Positions 11,005 through 35,721 of a stretch of 64,000 nt of DNA are shown piece after piece (positions within the stretch are counted from its first letter, which is position 1; each line of letters opens with the position of its first letter). Source of the stretch: Bacteroidia bacterium (GTDB lineage: Bacteria; Bacteroidota; Bacteroidia; CAILMK01; JACPUW01); the NCBI GenBank assembly GCA_049115495.1, contig JAGDZV010000001.1, positions 370,947 through 434,946 of the forward strand, in the 5' to 3' direction. Under the pieces are notes generated by a model. It saw only the letters and a list, made by a program, of their open reading frames with translations. It was not told the DNA's origin and did no database searches. A program made the position numbers and the translations under genes.

Positions 11005-14000
11005 CTATGGATGGCCGGTTTGGCAAGAGCATCCCGGCTGCATAAAGCCTTGTGAGCTTTCATGCCACGGAAAAGCCTGATTATAAGCATTGGTTTCCCA
11101 ATAGAATGGCTCCCGCTCTTTGCTGTAATTGCCTATTTCATTCATTGTTTCTGTATCGTAAAGCCTACCATTAATCATGGTGTAAACAATACTTTCAGTG
11201 TTTCTAATATCTTCCAATGGGTTTTCGTCCATAATGATTAGATCGGCAAGTTTTCCTTCTTTTAATGAACCGATATCTTTACTCATGCCAATATAGTCTG
11301 CACCGTTAAGTGTGGCTGCTCTAAGGGCTTCAAGGTTGGTCATTCCGCCCTGTTGTAAGCTCCATAGCTCCCAATGAGCACCAAGACCTTGTAGCTGTCC
11401 GTGTGCGCCAAGGTTAACTTTTACACCGGCATCAGCTAGCTTTTTACAAGATTCCGAAACAAGAATGTGTCCATTCTCATATTCTTCTTGCGGCACCATG
11501 GTTCTATGTCGGCTTCGTGAATCAATGATTCCGCGCGGATAGAATTTCAGAAGCTTTTCGTTTTCCCAAACATTGGTGTTTTGATACCAGTAGTATTCGG
11601 AATTTAAACCACCGTAGTTAACAATTAGTGTTGGTGTGTAACCGGTATTGCTAGCACTCCAAAGCTCAATAATATCCTTATAAACAGGCGCAACAGGAAT
11701 GTTATGCTCTACTCCAGTGTGGCCATCAATAATCATGGTCATGTTGTGAAAGAAAGTAGAGCCACCTTCAGGCACCACAAAAATGCCTTCTTCTTTGGCA
11801 GCTTGAATCACCATTTGGCGTTGATCTCGGCGGGGTTGGTTGTAGCTTTTTACTGATAGCGCACCAAAAGCTTTGGTTCTTCTAATTGAAGAACGTGCAT
11901 CATCAATATTATTTACAACGGCTTTAATATCAGACTCTGCTCCGTATAAAATGAACCCTGTTGAGAACAAACGCGGGCCTACCAAACCACCTGATTTTTG
12001 CAATTCGCTCAGCGCAAAAACGGTTTCTGTGTTTGCTGAAGGATCATGTGCCGTGGTAACACCATAGGCCAAGTTGGCGTAATACTGCCAGTGCTTTTGG
12101 GTAGTTAAACCATGTCTAAATGCACCTATATGGGCGTGAACATCAACTATTCCCGGCATTATAGTTTTACCGCTCACATCAATTGTAAACGCGCCAACTG
12201 GCACAGGCACTTCTCCATTTTTACCAACGGCTTCTATCCTATTATCTTTAATAACAATGGCTCCATTTTCAATCACTTCATTGCCTTCCATGGTTATAAT
12301 TCTTGCGCCATACAAAACGGTATAGCCGTCGGGCTTATCGGCTTTTGCCACTAAACCAATCTTTAGGCCTTCTTTTTCGGGTAATGGTGCTTCTTTTGGT
12401 CCGTTTTCTAAAAAGGTGAAACGGTCTTCAATATCTACTGAGAAATATTCGTTTCCAAGTGTCCACATTAGGGTTTCGCTATTGGTGCTCCAATGCAAGT
12501 TTGTACCTGCATCAAGCGCCACCTGTGCTACAGGAATTGATTTTGATTTGTCGCTAAGGTCCAAATTCTGTCCGCTTGGCGGAATTGGGGCGATGTACAC
12601 CTTATGCAAATGCGTAAAGGCAATCCATTTGTTATCAGGGCTTGGTAACAGTCGGTTGGCATACTTTGAAGTGATGTGAACTCTCTCGTCAAGACCATCA
12701 AAATTTATGCTTTTTAGCTGCTTGGTTAGGCTGCCAAAATAATGACCACCAGTTTGAATGTATAACCTTGAATCATCTTGATTAAACATTGGATATTGCC
12801 CCTGTTCGCCAACTTTCTTTACCTCTCCTCCATTGGCATTCATTTTATAAATACCAGGATTTTTTGAGTAGGCATGGCCTTGATCATTATTGCCACCTTC
12901 TTTTTGGTAAACAATTGATAGGGCATTATTACTGAATCTTGGTGTTCTGTAAATGCCTTTTTCTCTCGTAAGCTTCACTTGGTTGGTGCCATCCAAATTC
13001 ATTTTCCATATAGCCCCAAGCTCTTTATCATTCCAAGTAACAAATACTATTTGTTTGCCATTAGGCGAGAATGATGGTTCAAACTCAAAGTCAGAAAAAT
13101 CAGTGATTCTTTTTGGCGTTCCTTTGGGCAAGGCTTTGATGTAAAGGTGTCCTAAGGCGCTAAATACCAAAGACTTTCCATCAGGAGAAGTTTGAGCATG
13201 GCGTATCACTTTTACATCAAATTCGTCAGTGTAAGCTGGATTCTCAAACTCCAAGGCTTTGGCAATTTTCAAATTAACATCAACTTCAAAAGGTATAATT
13301 GCTGATTCTAAAGTTTTGATATTTAGTTTATTGATTTTACCACCTGCCCAAAACACTAAATGCTTATTATCAGGCAACCACTGAAAATTGGTGTAAACGC
13401 CAAACAAACACCAAGCTTCCATTTGGTCTTTGTTAAGCTTGTCATAAACCGGATATTCTAAGCCTGATTCTAATTCATGGATATAAAGTACTGACTTTGT
13501 TCTTACCCTTTTTACAAAAGCCAACAACTTACCGTCAGGAGAAATTTGCGGTCGAGCCGCACCACCAGGTCCACCAGTTATGGTTTTGATTTCACCCGTT
13601 TCAAATTCATATCGCTTAATCACATAGATTTGGCTATTGGGGTCTTTGTTGTATTGAAAATAACCACCAGGATACATGTCTTCGCAGTAATACATGTATT
13701 TTCCATCCTTACTCACAACAGGCTCATTTACGTCTTGCTGATCGTTTTTGCGTTTGGTTAACTGAACACCAGAGCCTCCAGTAATATGGTACATCCACAT
13801 TTCCCCAGCACCCAATGACCTACCAGAAGTAAAGTGTTTTCTGGCGACTAAATAATCCCCATTGGGCATCCAACAGGCATTATTTAGCAGCCTAAAGTTT
13901 TCTTTTGTTACCTGTTTGGCGTTTTTACCATTGGCATCCATCACCCAAACGTTATCTCCACCGCCAGCATCACTTGTAAATGAAATTTTGCTTCCATCAG

Positions 14001-17363: not shown

Positions 17364-18245
17364 ATGAGTGTATTGGTAAATAAAGACTCTAAAGTTGTAG
17401 TTCAAGGCTTTACAGGTAAAGAAGGTACTTTCCATTCAGAACAAATGATTGCTTATGGAACCAATGTAGTTGGTGGAGTAACTCCAGGAAAAGGCGGCCA
17501 AACTCACCTTGACAAACCGGTTTTTAATACAGTTGCTGATGCGGTTAACCAAGCTGGAGCAAATGTTTCAATCATTTTTGTACCGCCTGCATTTGGTGCC
17601 GATGCCATTATGGAAGCTGCTGATGCTGGAATAGAAACCATTATTTGCATTACAGAAGGTATTCCGGTAAAAGACATGATATACGCCAAAGATTACATAA
17701 CCAGTAAAGGTGCAAGACTTGTCGGACCTAACTGCCCAGGTGTAATTACCCCAGGCGAAGCTAAAGTTGGAATAATGCCAGGTTTTGTTTTTAAAGCAGG
17801 AAGAATTGGTATTGTTTCAAAATCAGGTACGCTTACTTATGAAGCAGCTGACCAAGTTGTTAAAGCGGGCTTGGGTGTTTCTACGGCAATTGGTATTGGT
17901 GGAGACCCAATAATTGGCACATCAACCAAAGACGCAGTTGAACTTTTAATGAATGACCCTGAAACCGACGGGATTGTTATGATTGGTGAGATTGGTGGTA
18001 ACTACGAAGCCGTTGCCTCAAGATGGATTAAAGACCAAGGTAACCCAAAACCAGTAGTTGGTTTTATTGCAGGACAAACTGCCCCGAAAGGAAAACGTAT
18101 GGGACATGCAGGAGCCATAATTGGTGGTGCAGAAGATACTGCAGAAGCTAAAAAGGCAATAATGGCAGAATGCGGAATTATGGTAGTTGAAAGCCCTGCA
18201 GATATTGGCAATACCATTGTTAAAGCCATGGAAGCAATAGCATAA
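17364..18245 (+). CDS. sucD: Succinate--CoA ligase (ADP-forming) alpha subunit.
   Basis: [45 protein letters not shown] is near-identical in pattern to E. coli SucD ([45 protein letters not shown]). The start was chosen by that alignment; the ORF extends upstream to 17316. Confidence 0.9.
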
Positions 18246-18282
18246 TTGACAATAAGAGTTCAGAATTTCGAAACTCATAAAA

Positions 18283-18318
18283 TAAAAATCCCGATTTCAA
18301 ACGAAATCGGGATTTTTC
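18283..18318. terminator. Bidirectional intrinsic terminator with an 11-bp perfect stem (ATCCCGATTTC/GAAATCGGGAT), a 4-nt loop, and an A-run/T-run on either side.
   Basis: AAAAATCCCGATTTCAAACGAAATCGGGATTTTT lies between the 3' ends of sucD (+) and crtZ (-). Confidence 0.55.
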
Positions 18319-18337
18319 GTATTTAGGTATGAAATGA

Positions 18338-18793
18338 TTATTTAATTAAGTGCCTGTATCGCTTGCCGGCATAAAGAAAGCCAAAAGCTTCGCCACCTTC
18401 TCTCCCAATGTTTTTGTGATGTTCTTTGTGTACACGTATTATTTTACGCATGTATCTACTATTGAATTTCCAATTATGCCTATATCGTTTGTGTACAATT
18501 ACATCATGAAAAACAAAATATGCAATACCATAAGCAACCACACCAAGGCCAAGGTAAAATAGTGGCCATAGGGTTTCAATTAATGAACCTATAACTACAA
18601 GCCCCATTGAAAAGAAGCTAAAAAAAACACTAAATAGATCGTTTTTTTCAAAAAATCCTTTGGGTTTGTTATGGTGATCTTGATGCCAGTTCCACATAAC
18701 ACCGTGCATTATGTATTTATGAGTAAGCCAGGCTACGCCTTCCATACCTAAAAAGGCTACCAAGATTAAAAATATGCCTATAACGATTTGCAT
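18338..18793 (-). CDS. crtZ: Beta-carotene 3-hydroxylase (non-heme di-iron, CrtZ type).
   Basis: HKYIMHG...WHQDHH...HDVIVHKR...HKEHH histidine boxes. GFLYAGKRY aligns with Pantoea CrtZ (AHKYIMHGWGWGWH..HH... FGFLYAPP). Length is 151 aa. Confidence 0.85.
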   Translation of the reverse strand: MQIVIGIFLILVAFLGMEGVAWLTHKYIMHGVMWNWHQDHHNKPKGFFEKNDLFSVFFSFFSMGLVVIGSLIETLWPLFYLGLGVVAYGIAYFVFHDVIVHKRYRHNWKFNSRYMRKIIRVHKEHHKNIGREGGEAFGFLYAGKRYRHLIK

Positions 18794-19350
18794 TATAGCT
18801 GCGATGTAATTTTATCGCTCATTGGATTTACAGAACTTGAAAATGCTTCAACATAATTTCCATTCTCATCAATAAGGTATTTATGGAAATTCCATTTTAC
18901 TGAAGAATTCTCTTTTCCGTTCAACTCTTGGCTAGTAAGCCATTTGTAAATGGGGTGTTGTTCTTTTCCTTTTACATCAATTTTCTCAGTTAATTGAAAA
19001 GTTACACCAAAGTTCTTTTCGCAAAATGCCTTAATCTCGGTTTCTGTTCCAGGTTCCTGTCCTCCAAATTGATTACAAGGAAAACCAATTATGGTAACCT
19101 TCTCTCCGAATTTTTCGTGTAGCTCTTGTAAGTCTTTATACTGCTTGGTAAAGCCGCACTCTGAAGCCACATTAACAAGAAGCAACTTTTTACCCTTGTA
19201 TTCTGAAAGTTTCAATTCTTCACCATCTATTGACCCAATGGTGTAATCATAAATATTGCTACTCATTTTTTCTTTAAATTCTGGATTGATTGAAAATGCA
19301 GATATCAGCGTTACAGCTGCTATTGCGATAGCTATAGTTATTTTATTCAT
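18793..19350 (-). CDS. Glutathione peroxidase (thiol peroxidase, GPx family) with an N-terminal signal or anchor segment.
   Basis: LLLVNVASECGFTKQYKDLQELHEKF...IIGFPCNQFGGQEPG are canonical GPx motifs; the catalytic Cys is in VASECG and FPCNQF is present. Its stop overlaps the crtZ start (TAATG) and its start overlaps the crtYcd stop (ATGA). Confidence 0.85.
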   Translation of the reverse strand: MNKITIAIAIAAVTLISAFSINPEFKEKMSSNIYDYTIGSIDGEELKLSEYKGKKLLLVNVASECGFTKQYKDLQELHEKFGEKVTIIGFPCNQFGGQEPGTETEIKAFCEKNFGVTFQLTEKIDVKGKEQHPIYKWLTSQELNGKENSSVKWNFHKYLIDENGNYVEAFSSSVNPMSDKITSQL

Positions 19351-20051
19351 TTGGTTATTTTCTTAATTACAAATTTCTTTTTTCGTATCCACTCTAGAAT
19401 AATTACGTTCATCAAAATAAGTAACATACCATACCAAATATCTTCAAAAGGTATAGTTGTAACTCTAAAGCCCAAGTTTTGCTCATTGTTATACATTACA
19501 ACCGGCTTTGCAGTAAGCACACCATTTACCAACATAAACGGAAAAATTGCAATTCCATATGTTGGATAAAAATAGTGTTCAATTTCGTGCTTGAACATAA
19601 TTCTCTGAACAATAAGAAATGTTGCCAATAACGAAAATGTAATTGCGGTGTAAGCTTTTTCGTAGTTGAATAATGCTGCCAAGATTAGTAGTGCCGAACC
19701 TCCGTAAGTTAGCACATTTAGCAATCTAATATTCAATTTAATATTAAACCATCCCCTAAGGCATTCGTATATAAAAACGCATGCATACGGTATAGTTATA
19801 AAAAAGAGCCACTCTTCAAGTGGCAAATTAATAAGATCTACACCCAATAAATAGGTTGGATTAAACCCCCAAACACCATTTTTAGTAAACCATACATCCC
19901 AAACAATAAAAAAGGCACCTACAATAAAAATGGCAATAAACAAATATTTCCAATTTTTATAAAAGGCCACCTTCTTATCGAAAGAAAGCACCAAGGGGAA
20001 AAACATGGTGCCAATGTTAAGTAAAAGGTAGGTATTGGGGCCGTCAAGCAT
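19347..20051 (-). CDS. crtYcd: Lycopene cyclase domain protein (fused heterodimeric CrtYcd-type lycopene beta-cyclase).
   Basis: ~234-aa polytopic membrane protein. It has two repeated halves, each with PLEEW/ PFEDIWY-type motifs (NLPLEEWLFFITIPYACV ... TIPFEDIWYGMLLIL), which characterise the lycopene_cycl_domain family (TIGR03462). Confidence 0.65.
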   Translation of the reverse strand: MLDGPNTYLLLNIGTMFFPLVLSFDKKVAFYKNWKYLFIAIFIVGAFFIVWDVWFTKNGVWGFNPTYLLGVDLINLPLEEWLFFITIPYACVFIYECLRGWFNIKLNIRLLNVLTYGGSALLILAALFNYEKAYTAITFSLLATFLIVQRIMFKHEIEHYFYPTYGIAIFPFMLVNGVLTAKPVVMYNNEQNLGFRVTTIPFEDIWYGMLLILMNVIILEWIRKKKFVIKKITK

Positions 20052-20057
20052 TATGCA

Positions 20058-20894
20058 CTAGAATGCGTTCAGTTGATGGCGTACGTAGGTTTGCATAAGC
20101 AAATAAAGCTTTTTCCCATTGGGTACTCTTACTCTTTCCGATTTTATCACTTCGGGAGTAAGCGATTTAATCTTGTTAAATAGTCTTTGATAATATACGA
20201 AAGCCAAGTAAACACCTCTCCTAGCTCCTGCAGGTAACTGCATTATACCAATGTAGGCCTCTTCAAAGTCTTTTTGAATATCGTCTTCAATAGCTCTTTT
20301 TGCATCAACATTAAAGCTATCAAAATCAACACCCGGAAAATACACTCTTCCTCTTTCGTAAACATCATCTTTTAGGTCTCTCAAAAAGTTTACTTTTTGA
20401 AACGCAGATCCAAGTTTCCTTGCGGGTTCTCTTAATCTTTCATATTCGTCAATATCTCCTTCTACAAAAACACATAAACACATAAGGCCTACTACTTCGG
20501 CACTTCCGTAAATGTATTTTTCGTATCCATCTTGCTTATAAGCATCAAAATATAAATCCATTTCCATGCTTTCTAAAAATGATACGATAAGGTCATGGGG
20601 AATATTGTACTCTCTAACCACTTCTTGAAAAGTGTGCAATACTGGGTTAAGGCTAATTCCTTGATCAATGGCTTTGAATGTATCGGTCCTAAACTCATCA
20701 AGCAATTGCTTTTTGTCTTTGTGATGAAAAGTATCAACTATTTCATCAGCGAATCTTACAAAGCCATAAATACCATAAATGGGATCATGAAAACGCTTGT
20801 CTAGGCTTCTAATACCTAATGAAAATGAAGTGCTGTAAGCTTTAGTAATAAGCTTACTACACTGCCTGCATGTTTGATGATATAAGGCTAGCAT
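20058..20894 (-). CDS. crtB: Phytoene synthase (squalene/phytoene synthase family).
   Basis: The N-terminal SFSLGIRSLDKRFHDPIYGIYGFVRFADEIVDT carries the DxxxD-like substrate-binding region. YIYGSAEVVGLMCLCVF and GSAFQKVNFLRDLKDD match the CrtB second aspartate-rich motif. Confidence 0.85.
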   Translation of the reverse strand: MLALYHQTCRQCSKLITKAYSTSFSLGIRSLDKRFHDPIYGIYGFVRFADEIVDTFHHKDKKQLLDEFRTDTFKAIDQGISLNPVLHTFQEVVREYNIPHDLIVSFLESMEMDLYFDAYKQDGYEKYIYGSAEVVGLMCLCVFVEGDIDEYERLREPARKLGSAFQKVNFLRDLKDDVYERGRVYFPGVDFDSFNVDAKRAIEDDIQKDFEEAYIGIMQLPAGARRGVYLAFVYYQRLFNKIKSLTPEVIKSERVRVPNGKKLYLLMQTYVRHQLNAF

Positions 20895-22371
20895 GGTTTT
20901 GTTCTTTTATAATACGTTCGGTAACAAGTTTTGAACCTACCACAACCATTGGCAATCCGGTGCCTGGTGTGGTTGAAGCACCTACATAGTATAGGTTGTT
21001 CAACTCTTCATCTTTGTTGCTTGGTCTGAAATAGCCAATTTGGTCAAGATCGTGTGCAAGTCCAAGTCCGCTACCTTTATATAGATTAAACTTCTCTTCC
21101 CAATCTTTTGGTGTCCAAATTGTTTTGCTCAGTATATTATTCTTAATATCAAAATCTACTCTATTCCCTAAGTCTTCAATTATACCATTAGCAAATTCCT
21201 CGGCATCTTCCCAAGTGGGTTTATATCTTAGATCTTGTACAGGGCATAAAATAAATAGGTTTTCACAACCTTCTGGCGCGCAAGTATCATTCATCTTTGA
21301 CAGCGAATTCACATAGTAATAAGGTCTCTGTGGACTATCATTTCTAGTGAAAATCGTATCAGCATACTCTTTAAAATTATCTCCTAAAAAGTAGTTGTGG
21401 TGATTTAGATTGTCAATTTTCCCTTTAACACCAAGGTATATGGTAAAAGGAGCTAGCGTCCATTTCTTCTTGTCTAACTTAGGTTCTGCATACTTCTCTC
21501 TGTTTAGTATTTGCCCCCTAAACGAAGCTGCATCTCCATTAACTACATATGTATCGGCTTGCCAAAGATTTCCGTTTTGATCTACAACACCATCTACAGC
21601 ACCGTTAGATTTTTTTACTTCGGTAATTTCTGTGTTGAATAAAAACTGGACACCTCTTTTCTTGAGTTCAGCCATCATCACATCAACTATTTGATACATT
21701 CCACCTTTTACATTCCAGTAACCATCGTGTTTAAGCTCTGTGTAATTCAACAAGCTGTAAACAGCAGGCGTATTAAAAGGTGTTGCGCCTAGGAAAAATG
21801 CAACAAGTGAAAAAATGATTTTAACCTGTTCACTATCGTAATGACTATCAAGCTCGTCCCACATGTTTCTAAACAACATGGGAACATATTTAACGGGCAC
21901 TTTTAAAAATTGAGCAAAGAACTTGAAAGGATTGTCAAAATTGTTCTTTACGATGTTGTACTCAGTACTGTGAAAAAGATCAGATGCCTTTTTGAGGTAT
22001 TTCTCTGTTTTGGCAACAAAATCGGGTTCAATTTTGGCAAACTCTTGAGCCAACAACTCAAGGTCTTTGTAAACCTTATATCTCTCATCTTTGCCTGCAA
22101 AATGTACAGTGTACAGGGGATTAAGCTCGTGAAAATCAATTGGATTTTTCATACCCACGTACTTAAAAAGCTCGTCGAACTCATAGCTCATTGAGAAAAA
22201 CGAAGGACCTACATCCCAAGTAAATCCATCTTTTTTGAGCTGGTTTAATCTACCTCCAGCTTGATGGTGCTTCTCTATGATTTGTACGTGGTACCCATGG
22301 TGGGTTAAGCGCAAGGCTGTGGCTAATCCACCAAGTCCTGAACCTACAATAATTGCTTTAGGCTGCGGCAT
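20857..22371 (-). CDS. crtI: Phytoene desaturase (CrtI-type FAD-dependent).
   Basis: N-terminal KAIIVGSGLGGLATALRL (FAD βαβ fold). ~500 aa. The C-terminal YYVGASTTPGTGLPMVVVGSKL matches the CrtI C-terminal signature. Confidence 0.85.
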   Translation of the reverse strand: MPQPKAIIVGSGLGGLATALRLTHHGYHVQIIEKHHQAGGRLNQLKKDGFTWDVGPSFFSMSYEFDELFKYVGMKNPIDFHELNPLYTVHFAGKDERYKVYKDLELLAQEFAKIEPDFVAKTEKYLKKASDLFHSTEYNIVKNNFDNPFKFFAQFLKVPVKYVPMLFRNMWDELDSHYDSEQVKIIFSLVAFFLGATPFNTPAVYSLLNYTELKHDGYWNVKGGMYQIVDVMMAELKKRGVQFLFNTEITEVKKSNGAVDGVVDQNGNLWQADTYVVNGDAASFRGQILNREKYAEPKLDKKKWTLAPFTIYLGVKGKIDNLNHHNYFLGDNFKEYADTIFTRNDSPQRPYYYVNSLSKMNDTCAPEGCENLFILCPVQDLRYKPTWEDAEEFANGIIEDLGNRVDFDIKNNILSKTIWTPKDWEEKFNLYKGSGLGLAHDLDQIGYFRPSNKDEELNNLYYVGASTTPGTGLPMVVVGSKLVTERIIKEQNHASLISSNMQAV

Positions 22372-22879
22372 GTGATATGTTTATTCTTTGTAATTTCTTC
22401 TTAAGCTCTTGACGTGCTAAGAAAATACGACTCTTAACCGTGCCAAGTGGCAAATCAAGTTCGTCAGCAATTTCTTGATACTTAAATCCTTCATAATGTC
22501 TCATGAATGGCACTCGGTACTCATCTGGTAAACCCGCAACAATCTTCATAAGATCGTCCATTACTAATTTACCTTGTGCTCTGTTCCCTTCGCTCTGTTG
22601 GTTTGAGTCAAGATAAAAACTGTTTTCAGTTCCGTCTTGGGTAATTCTCATTTTGGTTTTACGACGGTAGTTGTTAATGAAGATATTCTTCATTATAGTA
22701 TAAAGCCACGCTTTGATGTTGGTTCCCTGTTCAAATTTGTCCTTGTTGCTCAAAGCTTTGAACATAGTCTCTTGCAAGAGGTCGTGGGTGTCTTCTAGGT
22801 CATTGGTAAGATTCAATGCGTATGGCTTCAAAAAATTTTGGAGGGCTATTACTTTAGTTTGAAACTCTTGTGTTGACAT
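22358..22879 (-). CDS. ECF-type RNA polymerase sigma-70 factor.
   Basis: Region 2 (DLLQETMFKALSNKDKF...KAWLYTIMKNIFINNYRR) and region 4 (EYRVPFMRHYEGFKYQEIADELDLPLGTVKSRIFLARQELKK) are present. The start MSTQEFQ at 22879 is supported by a candidate -7 box 14 nt upstream; the longest ORF start is 22930. The 3' end overlaps the crtI start by 14 bp. Confidence 0.75.
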   Translation of the reverse strand: MSTQEFQTKVIALQNFLKPYALNLTNDLEDTHDLLQETMFKALSNKDKFEQGTNIKAWLYTIMKNIFINNYRRKTKMRITQDGTENSFYLDSNQQSEGNRAQGKLVMDDLMKIVAGLPDEYRVPFMRHYEGFKYQEIADELDLPLGTVKSRIFLARQELKKKLQRINISHAAA

Positions 22880-22899
22880 GTGTTTAACTTTTGATGATT

Positions 22900-22967
22900 C
22901 AAACCTAAACAAAAAATTCAGACGTACCAAATTTTTGTTTAACTATTGACCCGCCTATGTTAAACAA
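22900..22967 (-). promoter_or_regulatory. Candidate Bacteroidetes-type promoter of the sigma/crt operon, with a perfect inverted repeat abutting it. The -7 element is TAGGTTTG (22907..22900, minus strand) and the -33 element is TTG (~22930..22928). The inverted repeat is TTGTTTAAC-N15-GTTAAACAA (22935..22967).
   Basis: Read directly from the sequence. It matches the Bacteroidetes sigA consensus TAnnTTTG/-33 TTG from established knowledge. The 9-bp perfect inverted repeat is very unlikely to be chance in an AT-rich context. Confidence 0.3.
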
Positions 22968-23173
22968 AGTTCGATTTAGATGTATATACATTGATTTTAA
23001 ACATAGGGTATATACTCTGTTAACGCATTTTAACGAACTAAAAGGTATATACAGCTAATGCTAATAGCATTTTCACAAGCTGTAATTATGTTTAACATAT
23101 GCAAATCCCAACCTAAACAAAATGAGCTTAGTTTAAAATTTGAGCCTATTGGTGTCCATTCTATATTTGAATT

Positions 23174-23554
23174 ATGACTAATCCCCTAGCCAAAAACACT
23201 ATTAAAACCTATGGATTTAGTCTTTTCATGTTTATTTTATTTATGGTTCACCAGTTTGTTGAACCATTTTACAAGCACAAGCTGATTGATAGTTATCTAG
23301 ACGATATCTGTTTTTTACCTGTAGCCTATGGTTTTGTTAAACTTTTAATTCAACAAAGTATTGATCATTCGTTTAAGCTTTCAATAAGTCATGCAATTAC
23401 TGGCCTAGTTGTTAGCATATTGGCTACTGAAATACTTTTTCCGGCTTTGAGTAATAAGCATACAGCAGATTTTTATGACGGTATCGCTTATATGATAGGA
23501 TCTATTTTGTTTATGCTTTTTGGTAATAAACAATTCAATAACAATGTTGGCTAA
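23174..23554 (+). CDS. Hypothetical small integral membrane protein with four predicted TM segments.
   Basis: Only the ORF and hydrophobicity support it. It is the first gene of a long co-directional array. Confidence 0.3.
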   Translation: MTNPLAKNTIKTYGFSLFMFILFMVHQFVEPFYKHKLIDSYLDDICFLPVAYGFVKLLIQQSIDHSFKLSISHAITGLVVSILATEILFPALSNKHTADFYDGIAYMIGSILFMLFGNKQFNNNVG

Positions 23555-23590
23555 GCCTATACCCTATTTTTGAAAGACAAACATTCTATT

Positions 23591-24157
23591 ATGAAACAAT
23601 TATTTCTCTTAACAATTGTTGCAGTTTTTATGGCTCCAAACAAATCGAGCGCCCAACTTGGTAAGCAATTTTTCTTTGAACTATCTCCGCTTTACTTTTT
23701 ATCTCAAGGCGGTGGTGGTGCCATTGGCACAGAAAAAGGACATTGGCAAAACGGACTTGCCTTTAATACATTTAATCCAAATGAATTCTATAGCAATGGA
23801 AAAATTCATGTTACGGGGTCAATTTCTGCCATTAGAGCCATGAGCTTTGAACCATTTACTAGGTTTTATTTTAGCAAAGAACGAAAATGGCTATACCTAG
23901 GCTTAAACCTAGTGCCTGAGCTTTATACTTTAAAAGATGAGAAAACGGGAGAAACTTCATTGAGTTTGAGTGCTTATGCAAAACCGAAAGTAGGTCTAAG
24001 ATGGTTTCCCTTTAAACGCATATTCTATTTGGATGCCGGTTATGCTATGAGCATTAAAATTCTTGATAGCGATGTCACACAATTGACTAATCCTGAATTT
24101 ACGTTTAGCGATTTTATTGGGATGCCTGAATTCTCTGTTGGGGTTAGAATAAAATAG
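23591..24157 (+). CDS. Hypothetical secreted protein.
   Basis: Signal peptide MKQLFLLTIVAVFMAPNKSSAQ; the ORF extends upstream to 23570. I do not recognise a family. Confidence 0.35.
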   Translation: MKQLFLLTIVAVFMAPNKSSAQLGKQFFFELSPLYFLSQGGGGAIGTEKGHWQNGLAFNTFNPNEFYSNGKIHVTGSISAIRAMSFEPFTRFYFSKERKWLYLGLNLVPELYTLKDEKTGETSLSLSAYAKPKVGLRWFPFKRIFYLDAGYAMSIKILDSDVTQLTNPEFTFSDFIGMPEFSVGVRIK

Positions 24158-26020: not shown

Positions 26021-26563
26021 ATGAAAGGAGTAGTATTTACCGAGTTTCTAGAGTTAGTTGAAGAAAAATTCGGATATGAAGTGGCTGATCACATAATTGA
26101 AACAAGTAATTTACCAAACAAAGGAGCTTACACCGCTGTAGGCACCTATCCATTTGGTGAGTTAGCTACCATGCTGGGTAAGCTTAGCGAGCACACAAAA
26201 ATTCCAGCTTCAGACCTATTAGTGGCCTTTGGTCATCACTTATTTAACACATTTATTAGGCTTTATGGACACTTTTTTGAAGGTATCAAAGATTCGTTCG
26301 ATTTTCTCACGAACATTGAAGGCTACATACATGTAGAAGTAAAAAAACTATATCCTGATGCTGAATTGCCAAGTATAAAAACGGAACAAATTGATGATAA
26401 AACACTCATTTTGCATTACGTGTCAAAAAGAAAACTGGCACATTTAGCCTTTGGTTTAATTGAGAAATCACTTGAACACTTTAAGCAAAAGGCAAACATT
26501 AAAATGGAAAATAAAGATGATTCGGGTGAGAATGTAACCATAACAGTTGAGCTAACAGATTGA
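26021..26563 (+). CDS. hnoX: H-NOX (heme nitric oxide/oxygen binding, HNOB) domain protein, a stand-alone gas sensor.
   Basis: It aligns with T. tengcongensis H-NOX. MKGVVFTEFLELVEEKFGYEV vs MKGTIVGTWIKTLRDLYG. The proximal-His region NIEGYIHVEVKK vs MMDEVHLQLTK. The Y-x-S-x-R motif ILHYVSKRKLAHLAFGLIEKSLEHFK vs EMEYVSKRKMYDYFLGLIEGSSKFFK. The stop overlaps the next gene's ATG (ATGA). Confidence 0.85.
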   Translation: MKGVVFTEFLELVEEKFGYEVADHIIETSNLPNKGAYTAVGTYPFGELATMLGKLSEHTKIPASDLLVAFGHHLFNTFIRLYGHFFEGIKDSFDFLTNIEGYIHVEVKKLYPDAELPSIKTEQIDDKTLILHYVSKRKLAHLAFGLIEKSLEHFKQKANIKMENKDDSGENVTITVELTD

Positions 26564-29040
26564 GTAGCGAAGTTGACATATTAAAAAGAAGACTTGAAAG
26601 AGAGCGATTGGCGCGAAAAGAAGCCGAGCGAATTCTTGAAGAACGCTCGCTTCAGCTATACCATGCCAACGAAAAGCTCATTGAAATAAATCAAAACCTT
26701 GAAGAGAAAGTAGAGAAAAGAAGCAAAGAGCTTTTTATTCAAGAAAAAAACTACCAACAAGTAGTAGAAAATGTTCCTGATATAATCTACAAGGCTGACG
26801 CTGACGGGAAATTCATTTTTGTAAATAAAAACGCCGAAGAAATTACAGGGTATTCTGAAAAAGAGCTTTTGCAAATGCACTACATGCAATTGATAAAAGG
26901 AGACCATGTTGAGAATGTTCAGGCCTTTTATTACCAGCAGTACCTTGAAAAGGTTTCCAAATCATATTTAGAATTTCCGATTTTAACTAAAGAGCAAAAG
27001 CTTGTTTGGATTGGACAAAACGTGCAATACAATTACAAGAACAATGGTGAAATTGAAGAAGTATTTGCCATTGCCCGTGATATTACAGAGTTTAAATATG
27101 CCAATGAGCAGCTGGCCATAAGTGAAGAAAAATATCGAAGCATAATTGAGAACTTACACTTGGGCCTTTTAGAAACTGATGTTGAAGGTATAGTTACTAA
27201 GGTTTATCCTAAGTTTACTGAACTTACTGGCTATGCTCCACAAGATCTTCTTAACAAAGACCCTAAAAAAGTACTTTTAAAAAATGATGCAGACCGCCAA
27301 CTTGTTGTTGAACAAGAAAAACTAAGAATACAGAAAAAGGCAAGTGCATACGAAGCACCCTTGGTTAAAAAGAATGGCGAAACCATTTGGGTAATTATTA
27401 GCGCCGCTCCTATTTTCTCAAGAGAAGGTGAAATTATAGGAACCATTGGAGTTCATTTCGATATTTCGGAACGAAAACAAATGGAAGAAGACCTTAGAAA
27501 CGCTAGACATGAAGCCGAAAGCGCTCAAAAAGCCGAGCAGTTGTTTTTGGCCAATATGAGCCATGAAATTAGAACTCCGCTTAATGCTGTAATAGGCATG
27601 GCACATTTGCTATATGATTTGTCTTCAACTCAAGAGCAAATAGAGTATTTAGATATAATTAAAAACTCTGCTAACCTTTTAAAAGGGATAATTAACGATA
27701 TACTTGACATAAGTAAAATTGAAGCAGGTAAACTTGAGTATAACGAAAGTGATTTTTTAATAGCCGAACTGATTAAATCTCTTAGCAAAACCTTTGAGCT
27801 TAAAGTACAAGGCAAGCCCATTGAAGTTAAGTCTGAAATTGACGATCTTCTAAAAAACCAGGTAATTAAAGGTGATAGTTTACTTTTAAATCAAGTGCTT
27901 CTAAACTTATTAAGCAATGCTGAAAAGTTTACGAGTAAGGGCGAAATTGGCCTAAATGCTCAAGTGCTTAATAACACACCAGACCGCATAGATCTTCAAT
28001 TTATGGTTTATGATTCGGGAATAGGTATTAGCCCAAATAGAATTGACTCAATTTTTGAAAAATATGAGCAAGCCAATCAAGAAACCAAGATGAAATATGG
28101 CGGTACTGGACTGGGATTGGCAATAACCAAAAAAATAGTTGAGTTTTTAGGCGGTCATATTTCTGTAGAAAGCACAGAAAATATTGGCAGCGTGTTTAAG
28201 GTAAACTTAGGTTTTGAGAAATCAGCAGATAGCGCTGAAGCAAAAATTGAAGTTAACACAGAAAAAGAACAAACTAAAGTATATAAAGATGTATTGGTGG
28301 TTGAAGATAACGCCATGAATCGCAAATATTTAGGCGAGATTTTTAAACGATTTGACTTAAGCGTTGAATACGCCTTTGACGGCCAAATTGCCATTGAAAA
28401 AACGCAACAAAAGGTGTTTGATATTATTTTAATGGACCTGCAAATGCCTGTTAAAGATGGTTTTGAAGCAACGGTAGAAATTAGGAATAAATTAAACCCT
28501 AACCACAAGACCGAAATTGTGGGTTTAAGTGCGTTTGCAACTGATGAAGTAATTAAAAAATGTAACATGGCCGGAATGAATAATTTCATTTCTAAACCAG
28601 TTACCCCAAGTCAAATTATTGACTTGCTTAATTTAAGACAACAGCAACCCGTAATTGATTCAACTGGAATAGACAAAAGGAGCCGACTTGACAAAAATGT
28701 ATTGGAAGAACTCTATTTCGGTGATGAGAGCTACGCTTTTGAAATGTTCGATCATTTTCTTGGGGTAGCCGACGAACAGATTAATCAACTCAAAACAACT
28801 ATAAACGAGCAAAACTGGAAAGAGCTTAGAAGGTTAATTCATAAAATGAAACCTGGATTTTCTATGGTTGGCCTTCCCGGACTTCAAGAAATCGGATCAA
28901 AGCTTGAAACGGCTTGTGAGCTTGATGCCGAAAAAGAAATTCTAGAAATTTCTAAAACACTATTTATTGAGTTTGATGCTAGTATAAAAGATGTAGAAGA
29001 AGAACACAAACGATTAAAAGAATCTATTAATAGTAAATGA
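26560..29040 (+). CDS. hnoK: Hybrid sensor histidine kinase with an N-terminal coiled-coil, two PAS domains, HisKA, HATPase_c, a REC receiver and a C-terminal Hpt domain.
   Basis: H-box FLANMSHEIRTPLNAVIGM. N/G-boxes LLNLLSNAEKF, YGGTGLGLAI. Receiver DVLVVEDNAMNRKYL...ILMDLQMPVKDG...KPV. The Hpt-like IHKMKPGFSMVGL has a phosphorylatable His. There are no TM segments, so it is a cytoplasmic sensor. Confidence 0.85.
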   Translation: MSSEVDILKRRLERERLARKEAERILEERSLQLYHANEKLIEINQNLEEKVEKRSKELFIQEKNYQQVVENVPDIIYKADADGKFIFVNKNAEEITGYSEKELLQMHYMQLIKGDHVENVQAFYYQQYLEKVSKSYLEFPILTKEQKLVWIGQNVQYNYKNNGEIEEVFAIARDITEFKYANEQLAISEEKYRSIIENLHLGLLETDVEGIVTKVYPKFTELTGYAPQDLLNKDPKKVLLKNDADRQLVVEQEKLRIQKKASAYEAPLVKKNGETIWVIISAAPIFSREGEIIGTIGVHFDISERKQMEEDLRNARHEAESAQKAEQLFLANMSHEIRTPLNAVIGMAHLLYDLSSTQEQIEYLDIIKNSANLLKGIINDILDISKIEAGKLEYNESDFLIAELIKSLSKTFELKVQGKPIEVKSEIDDLLKNQVIKGDSLLLNQVLLNLLSNAEKFTSKGEIGLNAQVLNNTPDRIDLQFMVYDSGIGISPNRIDSIFEKYEQANQETKMKYGGTGLGLAITKKIVEFLGGHISVESTENIGSVFKVNLGFEKSADSAEAKIEVNTEKEQTKVYKDVLVVEDNAMNRKYLGEIFKRFDLSVEYAFDGQIAIEKTQQKVFDIILMDLQMPVKDGFEATVEIRNKLNPNHKTEIVGLSAFATDEVIKKCNMAGMNNFISKPVTPSQIIDLLNLRQQQPVIDSTGIDKRSRLDKNVLEELYFGDESYAFEMFDHFLGVADEQINQLKTTINEQNWKELRRLIHKMKPGFSMVGLPGLQEIGSKLETACELDAEKEILEISKTLFIEFDASIKDVEEEHKRLKESINSK

Positions 29041-29708
29041 ATTGCGTTGTAGTAGATGATGATGAAATGATGCTAAACTCCATAAAGAGGCTTTGCGAGA
29101 AGTCTGGTGTTTTCTCAGAAATCAATATTTTTAATGATAGCGAAGAAGCCGCTCAATTCATTTTTAACCGTCAGCCTGACGTACTTTTTCTTGATATTGA
29201 AATGCCCGGTATTAGTGGCATTGAACTACTCAAATCTTTTAACAAGATTGAGAATGTGATTGTAATTAGTGGTAAAACTGAATACGCATTTGAAGCTTAC
29301 CAGCTTAATGTAATAGATTATCTACCTAAGCCAGTAACGCTTCCAAGATTTTTGGCATCAATTGAAAAAATAAAACCAAAAACTGAAGAAAAGCCTGAAG
29401 AACTATACGTTAAGGTTGAAGGTAAGCTTACACGTGTACTGTTTAGTGAAATATTATATATTGAATCACTTACTGATTATATAAGGATTAATACATACAA
29501 CCATAAACACGTTGTTTACAGCTCTTTAAAACATATTGAATCAAAGCTCCCCTCTAAAATGTTTATGAAAGTACACAGGTCCTACATTGTAAACATGAGC
29601 AAAATCAAAGACATTGACGAAAACCTAATTGTTATTGAAGACGCCGTTATACCTGTAAGTAGAGCAAACCAATCTGAACTAATTAAGCGCCTAAACTTGT
29701 TGAAGTAG
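29037..29708 (+). CDS. LytTR-family response regulator (REC plus LytTR DNA-binding domain; AlgR/AgrA class).
   Basis: Receiver VVVDDDEMML...LFLDIEMPGISGIEL. C-terminal LytTR YVKVEGKLTRVLFSEILYIESLTDYIRINT...KVHRSYIVNMSKI. The start overlaps the kinase stop (ATGA). Confidence 0.85.
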   Translation: MNCVVVDDDEMMLNSIKRLCEKSGVFSEINIFNDSEEAAQFIFNRQPDVLFLDIEMPGISGIELLKSFNKIENVIVISGKTEYAFEAYQLNVIDYLPKPVTLPRFLASIEKIKPKTEEKPEELYVKVEGKLTRVLFSEILYIESLTDYIRINTYNHKHVVYSSLKHIESKLPSKMFMKVHRSYIVNMSKIKDIDENLIVIEDAVIPVSRANQSELIKRLNLLK

Positions 29709-29736
29709 TTCTCAAATTCAATTTAGTTTTTAGTAA

Positions 29737-30420
29737 ATGAGAGTTGCAGTCATTATTCCTGCGTTTAATGAAGAAAATGCTATTGCAAATGTGGTGAGAG
29801 ACATTCCTTCAGAGATTGAGGCAACCATATTGGTTTGTAATAACGGATCTTCTGATAGAACAGCTGCAGTTGCTAAAGAAGCAGGTGCTCTTGTACTTAC
29901 TGAAAACCGCAAAGGCTACGGATATGCATGCCTAAAAGGAATGAACTATATAGAGAATCACCTACCTAATACCGATGTGGTTGTTTTTATTGATGGTGAT
30001 TACTCTGATTACCCAGAAGAAATGCCAAAACTTTTGAATGAAATTGAAGCAGGATTTGACATAGTTATAGGCTCACGTGCACTTGGTCAATCAGAAAAAG
30101 GATCTATGACTATTCCTCAGCGCTTTGGTAATTGGCTATCTGGAATACTTATAAGGTTAATTTGGGGTGTTAAGGTTACTGACCTAGGGCCATTTAGAGC
30201 TATGAAATGGAAGCAGCTTCAAAAACTAAACATGCAAGACCCTACTTACGGCTGGACGGTTGAAATGCAGATAAAGGCCATAAAAGGTAAAATGGCCTAT
30301 AAGGAGATAGCCGTAAATTACCGACAGAGAATTGGAACAAGTAAAGTATCTGGAACGGTAAAAGGTGCCATCTTTGCCGGAACAAAAATTCTGTATACCA
30401 TTTTTAAGTATGCTTTTTAA
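29737..30420 (+). CDS. GT2 glycosyltransferase of the polyprenyl-phosphate sugar synthase type (Dpm1/ArnC/GtrB-like).
   Basis: MRVAVIIPAFNEENAI (GT-A N-terminus), DxD VVVFIDGDYSD, ~227 aa and soluble. This is typical of dolichyl/undecaprenyl-phosphate hexose synthases. It starts 28 bp after the LytTR regulator. Confidence 0.75.
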   Translation: MRVAVIIPAFNEENAIANVVRDIPSEIEATILVCNNGSSDRTAAVAKEAGALVLTENRKGYGYACLKGMNYIENHLPNTDVVVFIDGDYSDYPEEMPKLLNEIEAGFDIVIGSRALGQSEKGSMTIPQRFGNWLSGILIRLIWGVKVTDLGPFRAMKWKQLQKLNMQDPTYGWTVEMQIKAIKGKMAYKEIAVNYRQRIGTSKVSGTVKGAIFAGTKILYTIFKYAF

Positions 30421-33939: not shown

Positions 33940-34152
33940 ATGAAGAAGAACATGGGAAGCACCGATAGAATTGTAAGGTTAATAATTGCAATTGTAATAG
34001 CCGCACTCTATTTCACAAACGTTGTAAGCGGAACTTTAGGGCTTATTCTACTTGTACTGGGTACAATTTTTGCCCTTACATCTTTTGTAAGCTTTTGCCC
34101 TTTATACTTGCCCTTTGGCTTGAGCACTTGTAAAACTGAGAAGACTTTATAG
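33940..34152 (+). CDS. DUF2892 (YgaP-like) small membrane protein.
   Basis: 70 aa. DRIVRLIIAIVIAALY...GLILLVLGTIFALTSFVSFCPLYLPFGLSTC matches the DUF2892 consensus (two TM, CPxY...G..T). Confidence 0.6.
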   Translation: MKKNMGSTDRIVRLIIAIVIAALYFTNVVSGTLGLILLVLGTIFALTSFVSFCPLYLPFGLSTCKTEKTL

Positions 34153-35046
34153 AGCGTCTAAAAAGCCGTTTAAGTCTTCGAGATTTGAAACAAAAATTAC
34201 ATTAGGCCACTTTATTTGCACCTTTGACTCTGCAAGTCTTGTACCTGCAATTATGAAAGTTTTGTTAGGGAATAAAGAGCTCAGGGTATCAATATATCCG
34301 GTTACTTCTTCAATTCCAGTTTCATAGGTTAAAACGGTAAAAAAATAATCAGGATTGTAAACATTTGATATAACCGAAAGGTCATCGACCGGAACGGTTT
34401 GGCCTAAATAAACAGTTTTATGACCATTTACTTTAAATAAGTAATTGGCGAATAAGAGTCCAATTTCGTGCAATTCACCTTCTGGTAAAAACAAGGCAAA
34501 CTTGCTTGGATTTTCCACTTTTTTTGGCAGCATATTATCAGCAGCCACAATAAGCTTGTGTCTTATCAAATTAGAGATGAAATGCTCTTGTGCAGGTACT
34601 ATACTTCCTGTTTGCCAAAGGATTCCGATCCGATACATGAAAGGATAAATTACCTTAGTAACTGCATGTGTAAAGCCCAACTTTATTACCACATTGCTCA
34701 ATATCTTTTCAAACTTATCTTCATCAAGATCAAGCATGGTAATGGTGAGAGCATTTAGCAAATCACTATCTGCCTCAACTTTTTCAGTTACAGTCATTAC
34801 CCTACTGTTTATCTCTTGTCTGGTAAGTTCTGCAATTTTAGAAATACGCATGCCGTTATTATTGAGCATGGCAATATTGAGTACATGTTTTAAATCTTCC
34901 TCGTCAAAATACCTGATATTGGTACCTGTTCTTTTGGGCTGAATAATTGAATAGCGCTGCTCCCAAATACGCAGAGTATGGGCTTTGATACCTGTGAGCT
35001 GTTCAAGGTCTTTCATTGAAAATGTGCCTTGTTGCTTTTCTTTCAT
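34147..35046 (-). CDS. MerR-family transcriptional regulator with a C-terminal cobalamin-binding domain (CarH/LitR-type AdoB12-dependent light sensor).
   Basis: N-terminal MerR HTH (FSMKDLEQLTGIKAHTLRIWEQRY). A B12-binding four-helix bundle with the Wx9EH motif (ILWQTGSIVPAQEHF). A Rossmann B12-binding domain with E/DxHxxG (LPEGELHEIGLLF) and a downstream ...SNV...GG-like region. Confidence 0.7.
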   Translation of the reverse strand: MKEKQQGTFSMKDLEQLTGIKAHTLRIWEQRYSIIQPKRTGTNIRYFDEEDLKHVLNIAMLNNNGMRISKIAELTRQEINSRVMTVTEKVEADSDLLNALTITMLDLDEDKFEKILSNVVIKLGFTHAVTKVIYPFMYRIGILWQTGSIVPAQEHFISNLIRHKLIVAADNMLPKKVENPSKFALFLPEGELHEIGLLFANYLFKVNGHKTVYLGQTVPVDDLSVISNVYNPDYFFTVLTYETGIEEVTGYIDTLSSLFPNKTFIIAGTRLAESKVQIKWPNVIFVSNLEDLNGFLDAL

Positions 35047-35079: not shown

Positions 35080-35721
35080 TTAGGCAAACGCCAAAAACAT
35101 GGTTATAAAAAAGGTAATCAAGTAGATAAACACCCACTTGGCCATAATGTTTAGCCCTATTTGATTTAAAGTAAACCAAATGGTATTTAATATAGAAGCA
35201 ATCACAAACCAAGCCACATAATTACGGAATGGCACCGTGTTGTTTTGCCATTGCCAAAAATCAAAGGCCATGGCTACAGGCTCCATAATTACATCCATTA
35301 CCACCATAATTAATGCAGCTATTAAGCCCAAAACAACCTTTGGCAGCTTAATTTTTCTTATAACATAAACAGATGTATAACACATTAAAAGCCAGTTAAC
35401 GCCCATGGTTATTGGAACATTAAAAATTTTGAGGCCTAGAGTTTCTCCGTAATGATATTCTCCAAAAATAATTCCCGTTTTTACGCCTGCCACTTCAACA
35501 AAAAAGCCAACAAGAAAAACCAAGACCATCCATAGTGCTTCTTTAGTATTCCATTGTTTATGGTGTAACAACAAAAAACCTAAAACAAACCATAGGTTAA
35601 CGCTACTTAAGCCTAATGTAATTTCATGAAATTGAGATGTTAAAATGCCAACGAAACCGACAATTTCAATTATAAGAAAAAGCCAAATTGAATACTTTCT
35701 GTATGTATCTATTTTTTGCAA
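35080..35721 (-). CDS. Polytopic membrane protein, putatively of the carotenoid biosynthesis protein family (PF04240, CruF-like carotenoid 1',2'-hydratase).
   Basis: ~213 aa with 6-7 TM, and conserved His/Glu/Trp residues (LLLHHKQWN, FFVEVAGVKTG...GEYHYG, MEPVAMAFDFWQW). The assignment rests on overall resemblance and on its position next to the CarH-like regulator. I could not verify by alignment. Confidence 0.4.
   Translation of the reverse strand: MQKIDTYRKYSIWLFLIIEIVGFVGILTSQFHEITLGLSSVNLWFVLGFLLLHHKQWNTKEALWMVLVFLVGFFVEVAGVKTGIIFGEYHYGETLGLKIFNVPITMGVNWLLMCYTSVYVIRKIKLPKVVLGLIAALIMVVMDVIMEPVAMAFDFWQWQNNTVPFRNYVAWFVIASILNTIWFTLNQIGLNIMAKWVFIYLITFFITMFLAFA

Follow-up and report, generated by a model that had tools for sequence, protein, structure and literature searches.

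A carotenoid operon headed by an ECF sigma factor and carrying a glutathione peroxidase gene in a Bacteroidia bacterium, with phased palindromes that suggest LitR-type control

Bacteroidota are among the most abundant pigmented bacteria of lakes, soils and the sea. Their light-induced carotenogenesis, to our knowledge, is not understood, unlike that of Myxococcus, Streptomyces, Thermus and Bacillus. Here we analyse a carotenoid (crt) operon in a stretch of 64,000 nucleotides from a Bacteroidia bacterium (contig JAGDZV010000001.1, positions 370,947 to 434,946; hereafter the window). Its six minus-strand genes encode, in order, a sigma factor of the extracytoplasmic function (ECF) type, the pigment enzymes CrtI, CrtB and CrtYcd, a member of the glutathione peroxidase (GPx) family, and CrtZ (Table 1). 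Our preferred reading of the operon is a rearrangement, specific to its clade, of a version of the LitR–ECF sigma light circuit that is widespread in Bacteroidota. In this rearrangement the sigma gene would have been joined directly to crtI, the gene for LitR moved away, and both a secreted 2-Cys GPx and a small membrane protein gained. Of the new findings, two are of most use: a phased palindrome, sharply defined, that precedes the sigma gene, and an apparent regulon link of gpx.

In Streptomyces, a circuit leading from LitR through the ECF sigma factor LitS to the crt genes has been established (PMC11519972). The LitR–LitS pair of Streptomyces coelicolor resembles the system described here in combining, near crt genes, a MerR photoregulator of the adenosylcobalamin (AdoB12) type with a small ECF sigma factor that has no dedicated anti-sigma factor. 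A further likeness is that LitR controls the promoters of both the sigma gene and its own gene. The two systems belong to different phyla, and LitS forms a separate unit, whereas the window sigma gene is translationally fused into the crt operon. In addition, the gene for a MerR protein with a B12-binding domain (MerR-B12) lies 11 kb away in the window clade, and the window operon includes gpx. The window locus lacks the GCATCCR-N15-CVGAAD consensus of LitS promoters, for which no systematic search was made.

In Myxococcus xanthus, CarQ is defined by the co-transcribed six-helix DUF1109 anti-sigma factor CarR together with CarS (PMC9304148, PMC8156234). There an ECF sigma factor drives light-induced carotenoid genes and, as in the window, a membrane protein is encoded beside it. 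The window, however, has neither CarR nor CarS, and the membrane protein encoded next to its sigma gene is divergent, has four transmembrane helices (4-TM), is unrelated to DUF1109 and has no Pfam match. The first-pass annotation of this DNA had likened the operon to the CarQ logic; this analogy does not hold, as the gene following sigma is crtI, which overlaps it by 14 nt. The likeness to CarQ/CarR was rejected, there being no DUF1109-type or other anti-sigma gene. Because no anti-sigma gene accompanies the sigma family, Streptomyces LitR–LitS appears to be the closer analogue.

The CarH/LitR proteins of Thermus thermophilus and Bacillus megaterium repress directly (5c8d; PMC9304148). The window MerR-B12 protein aligns with CarH over the DNA-binding and B12 domains, the half-site TAAACA of the window palindromes fits TnnACA, and several phased sites suggest an oligomer. 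Known CarH operators consist of three to four tandem 11-bp direct repeats over the −35/−10 region, whereas the window halves are inverted with a 19-nt gap and the pairs are 55 bp apart; furthermore, a sigma factor is interposed in the window system.

Within Bacteroidota, the merR-rpoE-crt cluster is already known from Echinicola (Echinicola marina; PMC8683446). We found the same arrangement at 18 loci, which share with the window the sigma family (49–58% identical), palindromes upstream and crt genes downstream, but their MerR-B12 gene is adjacent, their genes are separated by gaps, and they have neither gpx nor the 4-TM gene. Their CrtI also belongs to another subfamily: window CrtI is 27–32% identical to the CrtI-like genes that follow sigma in MerR-sigma-crt loci (L027–L083), and 59–61% identical to CrtI of sigma-less Ignavibacteriales and Bacteroidia loci (L010, L011). 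The sigma-crt junction of the window clade may have been rebuilt with a different crtI. The MerR-crtI-crtB-crtZ clusters of Flavobacteriaceae such as Nonlabens spongiae (PMC11855829) likewise hold zeaxanthin/myxol genes under a MerR-family head, and the window has a CruF-like gene as well; unlike the window, they have no sigma gene and encode a CrtY-type cyclase in place of the fused CrtYcd. Our literature search found no paper on LitR-sigma circuits in Bacteroidota.

The six minus-strand genes and all junction distances given by the first-pass annotation match the open reading frame (ORF) listing and the sequence exactly. Overlaps of 14 nt (sigma/crtI), 38 nt (crtI/crtB), 4 nt (crtYcd/gpx, ATGA) and 1 nt (gpx/crtZ, TAATG) alternate with a single gap of 6 nt, between crtB and crtYcd. 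For comparison, eight independent full loci of the clade were used (the window, L001, L100, L096, L015, L003, L009 and L004), found through look-ups of sigma, 4-TM and gpx relatives and two collection scans. Gene order is identical in all eight, with sigma identity ranging from 95% down to 61%, gpx identity from 81% down to 57%, and the lowest protein identities at 50–61%. At such divergence, the recurrence of the sigma/crtI and crtYcd/gpx overlaps at their exact lengths in 8/8 loci, and of the crtI/crtB overlap in 7/8, argues that the arrangement is not due to chance. The spacing between gpx and crtZ varies from −1 to +12 nt, and crtZ is found in every locus. In L004 the genes flanking the operon are unlike those of the other loci, which indicates that the six-gene block is maintained in its own right. 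The closest species-level genome in a GTDB-based collection is a groundwater 'Bacteroidetes bacterium' (CrtI 77% identical), so that the label 'flavobacterial' is an approximation only.

The hairpin after crtZ is the only strong terminator of the operon. Within the operon, terminator-like matches (4, against 4.0 in shuffled sequences) and sigma-70 promoter-like matches (16, against 19.7) are not above chance, and an Rfam scan of positions 17800–23700 for known regulatory RNAs gave nothing relevant. The compact operon proposed earlier is thus supported by junctions kept in diverged relatives, by its end signal and by the chance level of internal signals. From junction geometry, conservation and the end hairpin, we infer that the six genes form a single, translationally coupled transcript, a reading that has nearly all the support that sequence by itself can offer. 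All four enzyme families needed for zeaxanthin (CrtB, CrtI, lycopene cyclase and CrtZ) are encoded, which makes zeaxanthin the predicted product of the operon. On reading the crtZ product, the CrtZ-type His boxes HKYIMH, HQDHH, HDVIVH and HKEHH are present. The gene for geranylgeranyl diphosphate (GGPP) synthase, crtE, is not part of the operon.

That the head gene encodes an ECF-type sigma factor, as first proposed, is borne out by its domains. The protein has the sigma-2 and sigma-4 domains only (PF04542, PF08281 and PF07638) in 173 aa, as in ECF (group 4) sigma factors, and TIGR02937 scores 79 bits against a cut-off of 42.9. No NCBIfam equivalog exceeded its cut-off on this protein; NF058625, the GFO_1088/PG0214 ECF sigma family, reached 104.5 bits against 130. 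Among relatives, the same model gives about 93 bits for L005 and L004, and four others fall below the listing threshold. By these scores the window sigma factor is related to the NF058625 family but outside its membership. The gene had been drawn up to position 22930; the mechanical ORF (22358–22930) does reach a TTG there, but the true start is probably ATG 22879. This start is preferred because the resulting N-terminus, MSTQEF, fits the family consensus MxxxEF, with M1 and F6 invariant in the family alignment, and because the NF058625 alignment begins at residue 18 of the TTG-started ORF. The suggested search for an anti-sigma gene found none adjacent in the window, where crtI comes next.

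Homologues of the window sigma factor number more than 7,900 and are mostly from Bacteroidota. A genome-collection scan with CrtI gave six loci only, and the census was therefore built on metagenome contigs, by a scan with the sigma family alignment (80 loci, 49–86% identity). Directly downstream of sigma, a crtI-like gene is found in 24 of the 63 loci with enough sequence and crtB in one; directly upstream, a gene with MerR and B12-binding domains is found in 25 of 53. The 45 loci with both flanks comprise 18 MerR-sigma-crt, 4 MerR-sigma, 2 sigma-crt and 21 with neither neighbour. No census locus has a co-oriented downstream anti-sigma-like gene. The sigma family is therefore widespread in Bacteroidota, and its pairing with crt genes is common, normally together with a CarH/LitR-type gene. 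At family level this agrees with LitR–LitS (25/53 for MerR-B12, 25/63 for crt), in a comparison of gene pairing and not of sequence. The earlier suggestion that an ECF sigma factor stands in place of the usual MerR regulator thus rests on a false contrast, since crt genes follow sigma in about 40% of the 63 loci and MerR-B12 precedes it in 25/53; the window lineage has both, unlinked.

The promoter region of the operon is marked by the palindrome TGTTTA-N19-TAAACA, which occurs in perfect form only three times in the 64 kb, always within a region of 243 nt upstream of sigma. In its consensus, TGTTTAAnTTT-N9-AAAnTTAAACA, the symmetry extends over some 11 nt of each half. Across five clade loci, some 110 nt before the sigma ATG are conserved beyond what protein divergence would lead one to expect, and about 30 nt around the proximal copy O1 are nearly invariant. 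With at most one mismatch, 59 of 82 loci carry the motif in the 130 nt that precede sigma, at a density of 7.6 per kb compared with 0.047 per kb elsewhere (about 160-fold). Copies preferably end 1–13 nt or 54–66 nt before the sigma ATG, and the spacing is exactly 55 bp in 17 of 25 neighbouring pairs across loci. Pairs stand at 23 of 34 crt-heading sigma genes but at 2 of 53 other sigma genes. At the same threshold, the ORFs that follow the motif comprise 79 sigma, 10 MerR-B12, 4 4-TM, 1 crtB and 7 other genes; when two mismatches are allowed, the motif precedes 17/30 MerR-B12 genes and 5/5 4-TM genes. Pigment genes and gpx had been proposed to share one stress sigma factor; their common element, as far as the sequence goes, is a promoter region with paired palindromic candidate operators, which the sigma factor itself may or may not read.

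The palindrome is probably the operator of an oligomeric, and probably LitR/CarH-like, repressor. An oligomeric DNA-binding protein is favoured over a −35/−10 pair because of the dyad symmetry and the strict helical phasing. The experimentally defined CarH operator repeat is nnnnTnnACAn (PMC9304148), with which the half-site TAAACA is compatible. This fit, and the occurrence of the motif before both MerR-B12 and sigma genes, which recalls the control of both genes by Streptomyces LitR, point to a binder of the LitR/CarH type. Several observations weigh against such an operator. Known CarH operators are tandem 11-bp direct repeats, unlike the inverted halves of the palindrome with their 19-nt gap. 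In about 40 loci the proximal copy ends only 1–13 nt before the ATG, an odd place for an operator, and this start-adjacent copy could be a promoter read by sigma for a leaderless mRNA. About half of the sigma genes without an adjoining MerR or crt gene still have the palindrome, so that the binder need not be LitR. Further, the MerR-B12 gene of the clade is non-adjacent, and the match upstream of it is weak (one mismatch, inside the preceding ORF). Lastly, a single repressor-controlled promoter for both sigma and crt would leave the need for a sigma factor unexplained.

Some of these points lend themselves to a different explanation, in which the palindromes are, or overlap, auto-activated promoters of the sigma factor itself. 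Sigma would then be gated post-translationally, for example by the 4-TM protein as a novel type of membrane anti-sigma factor sensing singlet oxygen or lipid peroxides, in a CarQ/CarR-like scheme without LitR. ECF sigma genes are commonly autoregulated, the motif lies most often 7–9 nt before start codons (of sigma genes and of a stand-alone gpx discussed below), which fits leaderless or short-leader mRNAs, and it is present at many sigma genes without a nearby MerR gene. We nevertheless judge this explanation unlikely, as two sigma domains reading −35 and −10 elements would not produce a dyad of some 11 nt per half or pairs phased strictly at 55 bp, and in the window clade the proximal copy lies 1–2 nt before the ATG, too near for a −10 element. 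Upstream of the window sigma gene, neither a Bacteroidetes-type promoter (−33 TTTG/−7 TAnnTTTG) nor an ECF-type promoter (−35 AAC/−10 CGT) could be placed convincingly by eye. Sigma homologues of gut Bacteroides on PLSDB records are 40–47% identical to the window protein; at the two loci scanned (45–46% identical), there is no palindrome upstream and there are no crt or MerR genes nearby. The missing motif may be held against auto-activation, but this result does not separate the repressor-operator and promoter readings of the palindrome.

Further palindromic sequences were observed. Three exact GTATATAC palindromes (22982, 23008 and 23045), the sole copies in the 64 kb, lie between O2 and O3; the triple is not conserved in the 95%-identical relative L001. 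At a MerR-sigma-crtI-crtB locus on a 3.3-Mb contig (L030), a palindrome with one mismatch lies between crtI and crtB (12155–12185), which shows that the palindrome can stand before crt genes themselves; none was found directly upstream of sigma at this locus. Two tandem paralogues of the window sigma family occur in L020 (10001–11332), L040 (1–1594) and L050 (932–2169), and in L020 and L050 the palindrome precedes one copy only.

The candidate repressor is the window MerR-B12 protein. Among solved structures it is closest to Thermus CarH (5c8d, E 1.3e-15), with which it aligns over both domains, and the W-x9-EH motif and the HEIG histidine are kept (W...QEH and LHEIG, compared with W...EEH and RHEIG in 5c8d). 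By these motifs it would belong to CarH/LitR class I, which makes it a candidate for sensing light and for acting in trans at the palindromes. Where MerR-B12 adjoins sigma, the palindrome stands upstream of sigma in 33 of 36 loci; where sigma has neither a MerR nor a crt neighbour, it does so in 21 of 41. This association, the palindromes before MerR-B12 genes and the agreement of the half-site with the CarH consensus all speak for a tie to the photoregulator. They make it rather unlikely, in our view, that the operon is constitutive or regulated by something other than light, with the palindrome bound by an unrelated regulator and MerR-B12 controlling only its CruF-like neighbourhood. Such regulation would accord with the position of the MerR-B12 gene away from sigma in the window clade, with the weak motif match upstream of it, and with a pair of genes for an H-NOX protein and a hybrid histidine kinase between the two loci. 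The CruF-like/MerR-B12 pair itself recurs in L003, 5.6 kb from the sigma gene of that locus; the regions upstream of the pair in the window and L003 have no common motif.

Taking these observations together, we lean, with some reserve, towards a photo-oxidative-stress operon under phased palindromes, with a LitR-like repressor, release by light and amplification by sigma. One transcript would start upstream of sigma and end at the hairpin after crtZ. It would supply an ECF sigma factor free of any anti-sigma partner, the four enzymes CrtB, CrtI, CrtYcd and CrtZ that are predicted to take GGPP to zeaxanthin, and a secreted peroxidase of the 2-Cys GPx type, whose most likely role is the reduction of lipid hydroperoxides at the periplasmic face of the envelope. 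The phased palindromes would be occupied in darkness by an oligomeric repressor, the likeliest candidate being the AdoB12-dependent CarH/LitR homologue 11 kb away. In the light, the repressor would be released and the operon transcribed. Sigma might then amplify the response or extend it to unlinked genes, as in Streptomyces LitR–LitS. The window and about 100 related loci indicate that the LitR-plus-ECF-sigma module is widespread in Bacteroidota and can be rearranged. The 31-bp site and the protein pair are concrete targets in any culturable relative, and together they are a candidate compact light switch for Bacteroidota genetics.

The peroxidatic residue of the gpx product is Cys, not Sec, in the motif VASECGFT, and the resolving Cys lies in AFCEKNFGVTF. 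The best solved relative is yeast Hyr1/Gpx3 (3cmi, E 2e-42), in which both Cys residues are aligned and the corresponding motifs read VASKCGFT and QFCQLNYGVTF; GPx4 entries come next. By these motifs the protein is predicted to be a thioredoxin-dependent 2-Cys GPx, of the kind represented by Gpx3/Hyr1, plant GPX and GPx4-like monomeric enzymes. The first-pass annotation called it secreted or anchored. In agreement, the N-terminus in 8/8 clade loci consists of a short basic stretch followed by a hydrophobic segment of unconserved sequence, as is typical of a signal peptide; this sequence pattern suggests export.

Whether gpx is kept inside the crt operons of relatives had been raised at the outset: it is present in 8/8 clade loci, and among the 80 metagenome loci of the census this position is limited to the window clade. 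Outside the clade, the gene is most similar to ordinary Flavobacteriales gpx genes of equal length (58–67% identical), at least one of which lies elsewhere in its genome. One outside relative, a stand-alone gpx in the 3.85-Mb genome L099 (66% identical), is preceded by a perfect palindrome whose end lies 7 nt from the ATG, where the background of perfect palindromes is about 1.4e-3 per 130 nt. The finding suggests membership of gpx in the same regulon in other lineages, a link that the window clade would have fixed by inserting gpx between crtYcd and crtZ, although L099 is a single case. In L099 (5222–8167) gpx is followed by genes for a SOUL haem-binding protein and an aldo-keto reductase, and it is divergent from a gene for a 217-aa FA_hydroxylase protein that is not CrtZ-like by tblastn. 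This segment may be another small photo-oxidative-stress unit.

In membranes, carotenoids act as quenchers of singlet oxygen; the lipid hydroperoxides that arise in spite of quenching are substrates of GPx4/Gpx3-type enzymes, which reduce them. The pairing of pigment and gpx makes functional sense because both act on one damage pathway, and at the genetic level it hints at a joint defence against envelope photo-oxidation, with pigment for prevention and a GPx4-like enzyme for repair. The gene might instead be a passenger with no functional relation to the pigment. There is a precedent in btuE, a GPx homologue within the B12-transport operon btuCED of Escherichia coli, and thus a GPx-family gene embedded among genes of another pathway. 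The confinement of in-operon gpx to one clade and its likeness to ordinary Flavobacteriales genes would suit a passenger, as would its best NCBIfam match, the E. coli-type GPx model (149 bits against a cut-off of 270). BtuE, however, lacks a signal peptide and is not known to be connected with the function of its operon, whereas the window enzyme and the pigment share a type of damage. The ATGA overlap with crtYcd, kept in 8/8 loci despite divergence to 57%, and the palindrome before the stand-alone L099 gene also count against a passenger, which we therefore hold to be improbable. We found no paper on gpx within crt operons.

The other proposed addition in the window clade is the 4-TM gene, which is divergent from sigma in 9/10 clade loci, at the position that MerR-B12 occupies in other lineages. 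Its copies in L004, L095, L096 and L097 are 27–34% identical to that of the window, and it is absent from L009, which retains the operon. Neither the window protein nor its ten relatives belong to a Pfam or NCBIfam family; an exhaustive profile search retrieved 309 clusters of small unannotated proteins, and a confident four-helix model had no informative structural neighbour. E86 and D102 are invariant and several further residues near-invariant, which suggests a specific function. By its position, the 4-TM protein is the only candidate partner of sigma. The same position, conserved in the clade, is what recommends it as an anti-sigma factor to the auto-activation scheme described above, while the lack of any anti-sigma domain, zinc motif, family assignment or structural match, and the absence of the gene from L009, speak against that role. 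A bolder proposal is that the 4-TM protein replaced the adjacent LitR as the input to sigma, either as a minimal membrane anti-sigma factor or as a sensor of singlet oxygen or lipid peroxides, with the secreted GPx closing a feedback loop by removing the activating lipid hydroperoxides. We regard this as very unlikely; if true, the feedback would make a self-limiting envelope photo-oxidation circuit without a described counterpart.

Table 1. Positions in the window of the operon, its candidate signals and the related neighbouring genes
Feature	Position	Strand	Description
O1, proximal palindrome	22881..22911		TGTTTAGG-N15-GTTAAACA; ends 2 nt before sigma ATG
O2, distal palindrome	22936..22966		TTTGTTTAAC-N15-GTTAAACAAA; perfect 10-nt arms; 55 bp from O1, 57 nt before sigma ATG
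O3, third palindrome	23089..23119		54 nt upstream of the divergent 4-TM gene
ECF-type sigma factor	22358..22879	(-)	173 aa; first operon gene; Pfam Sigma70_r2, r4_2, ECF
CrtI phytoene desaturase	20857..22371	(-)	504 aa; TIGR02734, 384.8 bits against cut-off 238.1
CrtB phytoene synthase	20058..20894	(-)	278 aa; PF00494 SQS_PSY, 154.9 bits
CrtYc-Yd-type fused lycopene cyclase	19347..20051	(-)	234 aa; two Lycopene_cyc domains; PF18916 in two stretches, 140.3 bits; TIGR03462 in two stretches
gpx, Cys-type glutathione-peroxidase family	18793..19350	(-)	185 aa; PF00255 GSHPx, 139.6 bits
CrtZ beta-carotene hydroxylase	18338..18793	(-)	151 aa; last operon gene; PF04116 FA_hydroxylase, 45 bits against cut-off 31
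Intrinsic-terminator-like hairpin	18284..18317	(-)	15 pairs and a T run; 21 nt past the crtZ stop
mem126, four-helix membrane protein	23174..23554	(+)	126 aa; 4-TM gene, divergent conserved neighbour of the sigma gene
CarH/LitR-type regulator (MerR HTH and B12-binding)	34147..35046	(-)	299 aa; MerR_1 PF13411 and B12-binding_2 PF02607
Carotenoid-biosynthesis membrane protein, CruF-like	35080..35721	(-)	PF04240; directly upstream of MerR-B12, same strand

The adjacency of the CruF-like and MerR-B12 genes suggests a second carotenoid branch, possibly monocyclic or hydrated. Between this pair and the crt operon are glycosyltransferase and methyltransferase genes (29037–33779). The same interval holds the H-NOX/kinase gas-sensor pair on the plus strand (26021–29040), which consists of an H-NOX (HNOB) haem-NO/O2-binding gene with a 4-nt overlap to a gene for an 826-aa hybrid histidine kinase (two PAS, HisKA, HATPase, receiver and Hpt domains). 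The HNOB gene is syntenic in L001/L002 and in L015; the kinase is intact in L015, while L001/L002 retain fragments only (residues 31–223, no called gene). Further along the plus strand, positions 39069–51962 form one ORF of 4,297 aa.

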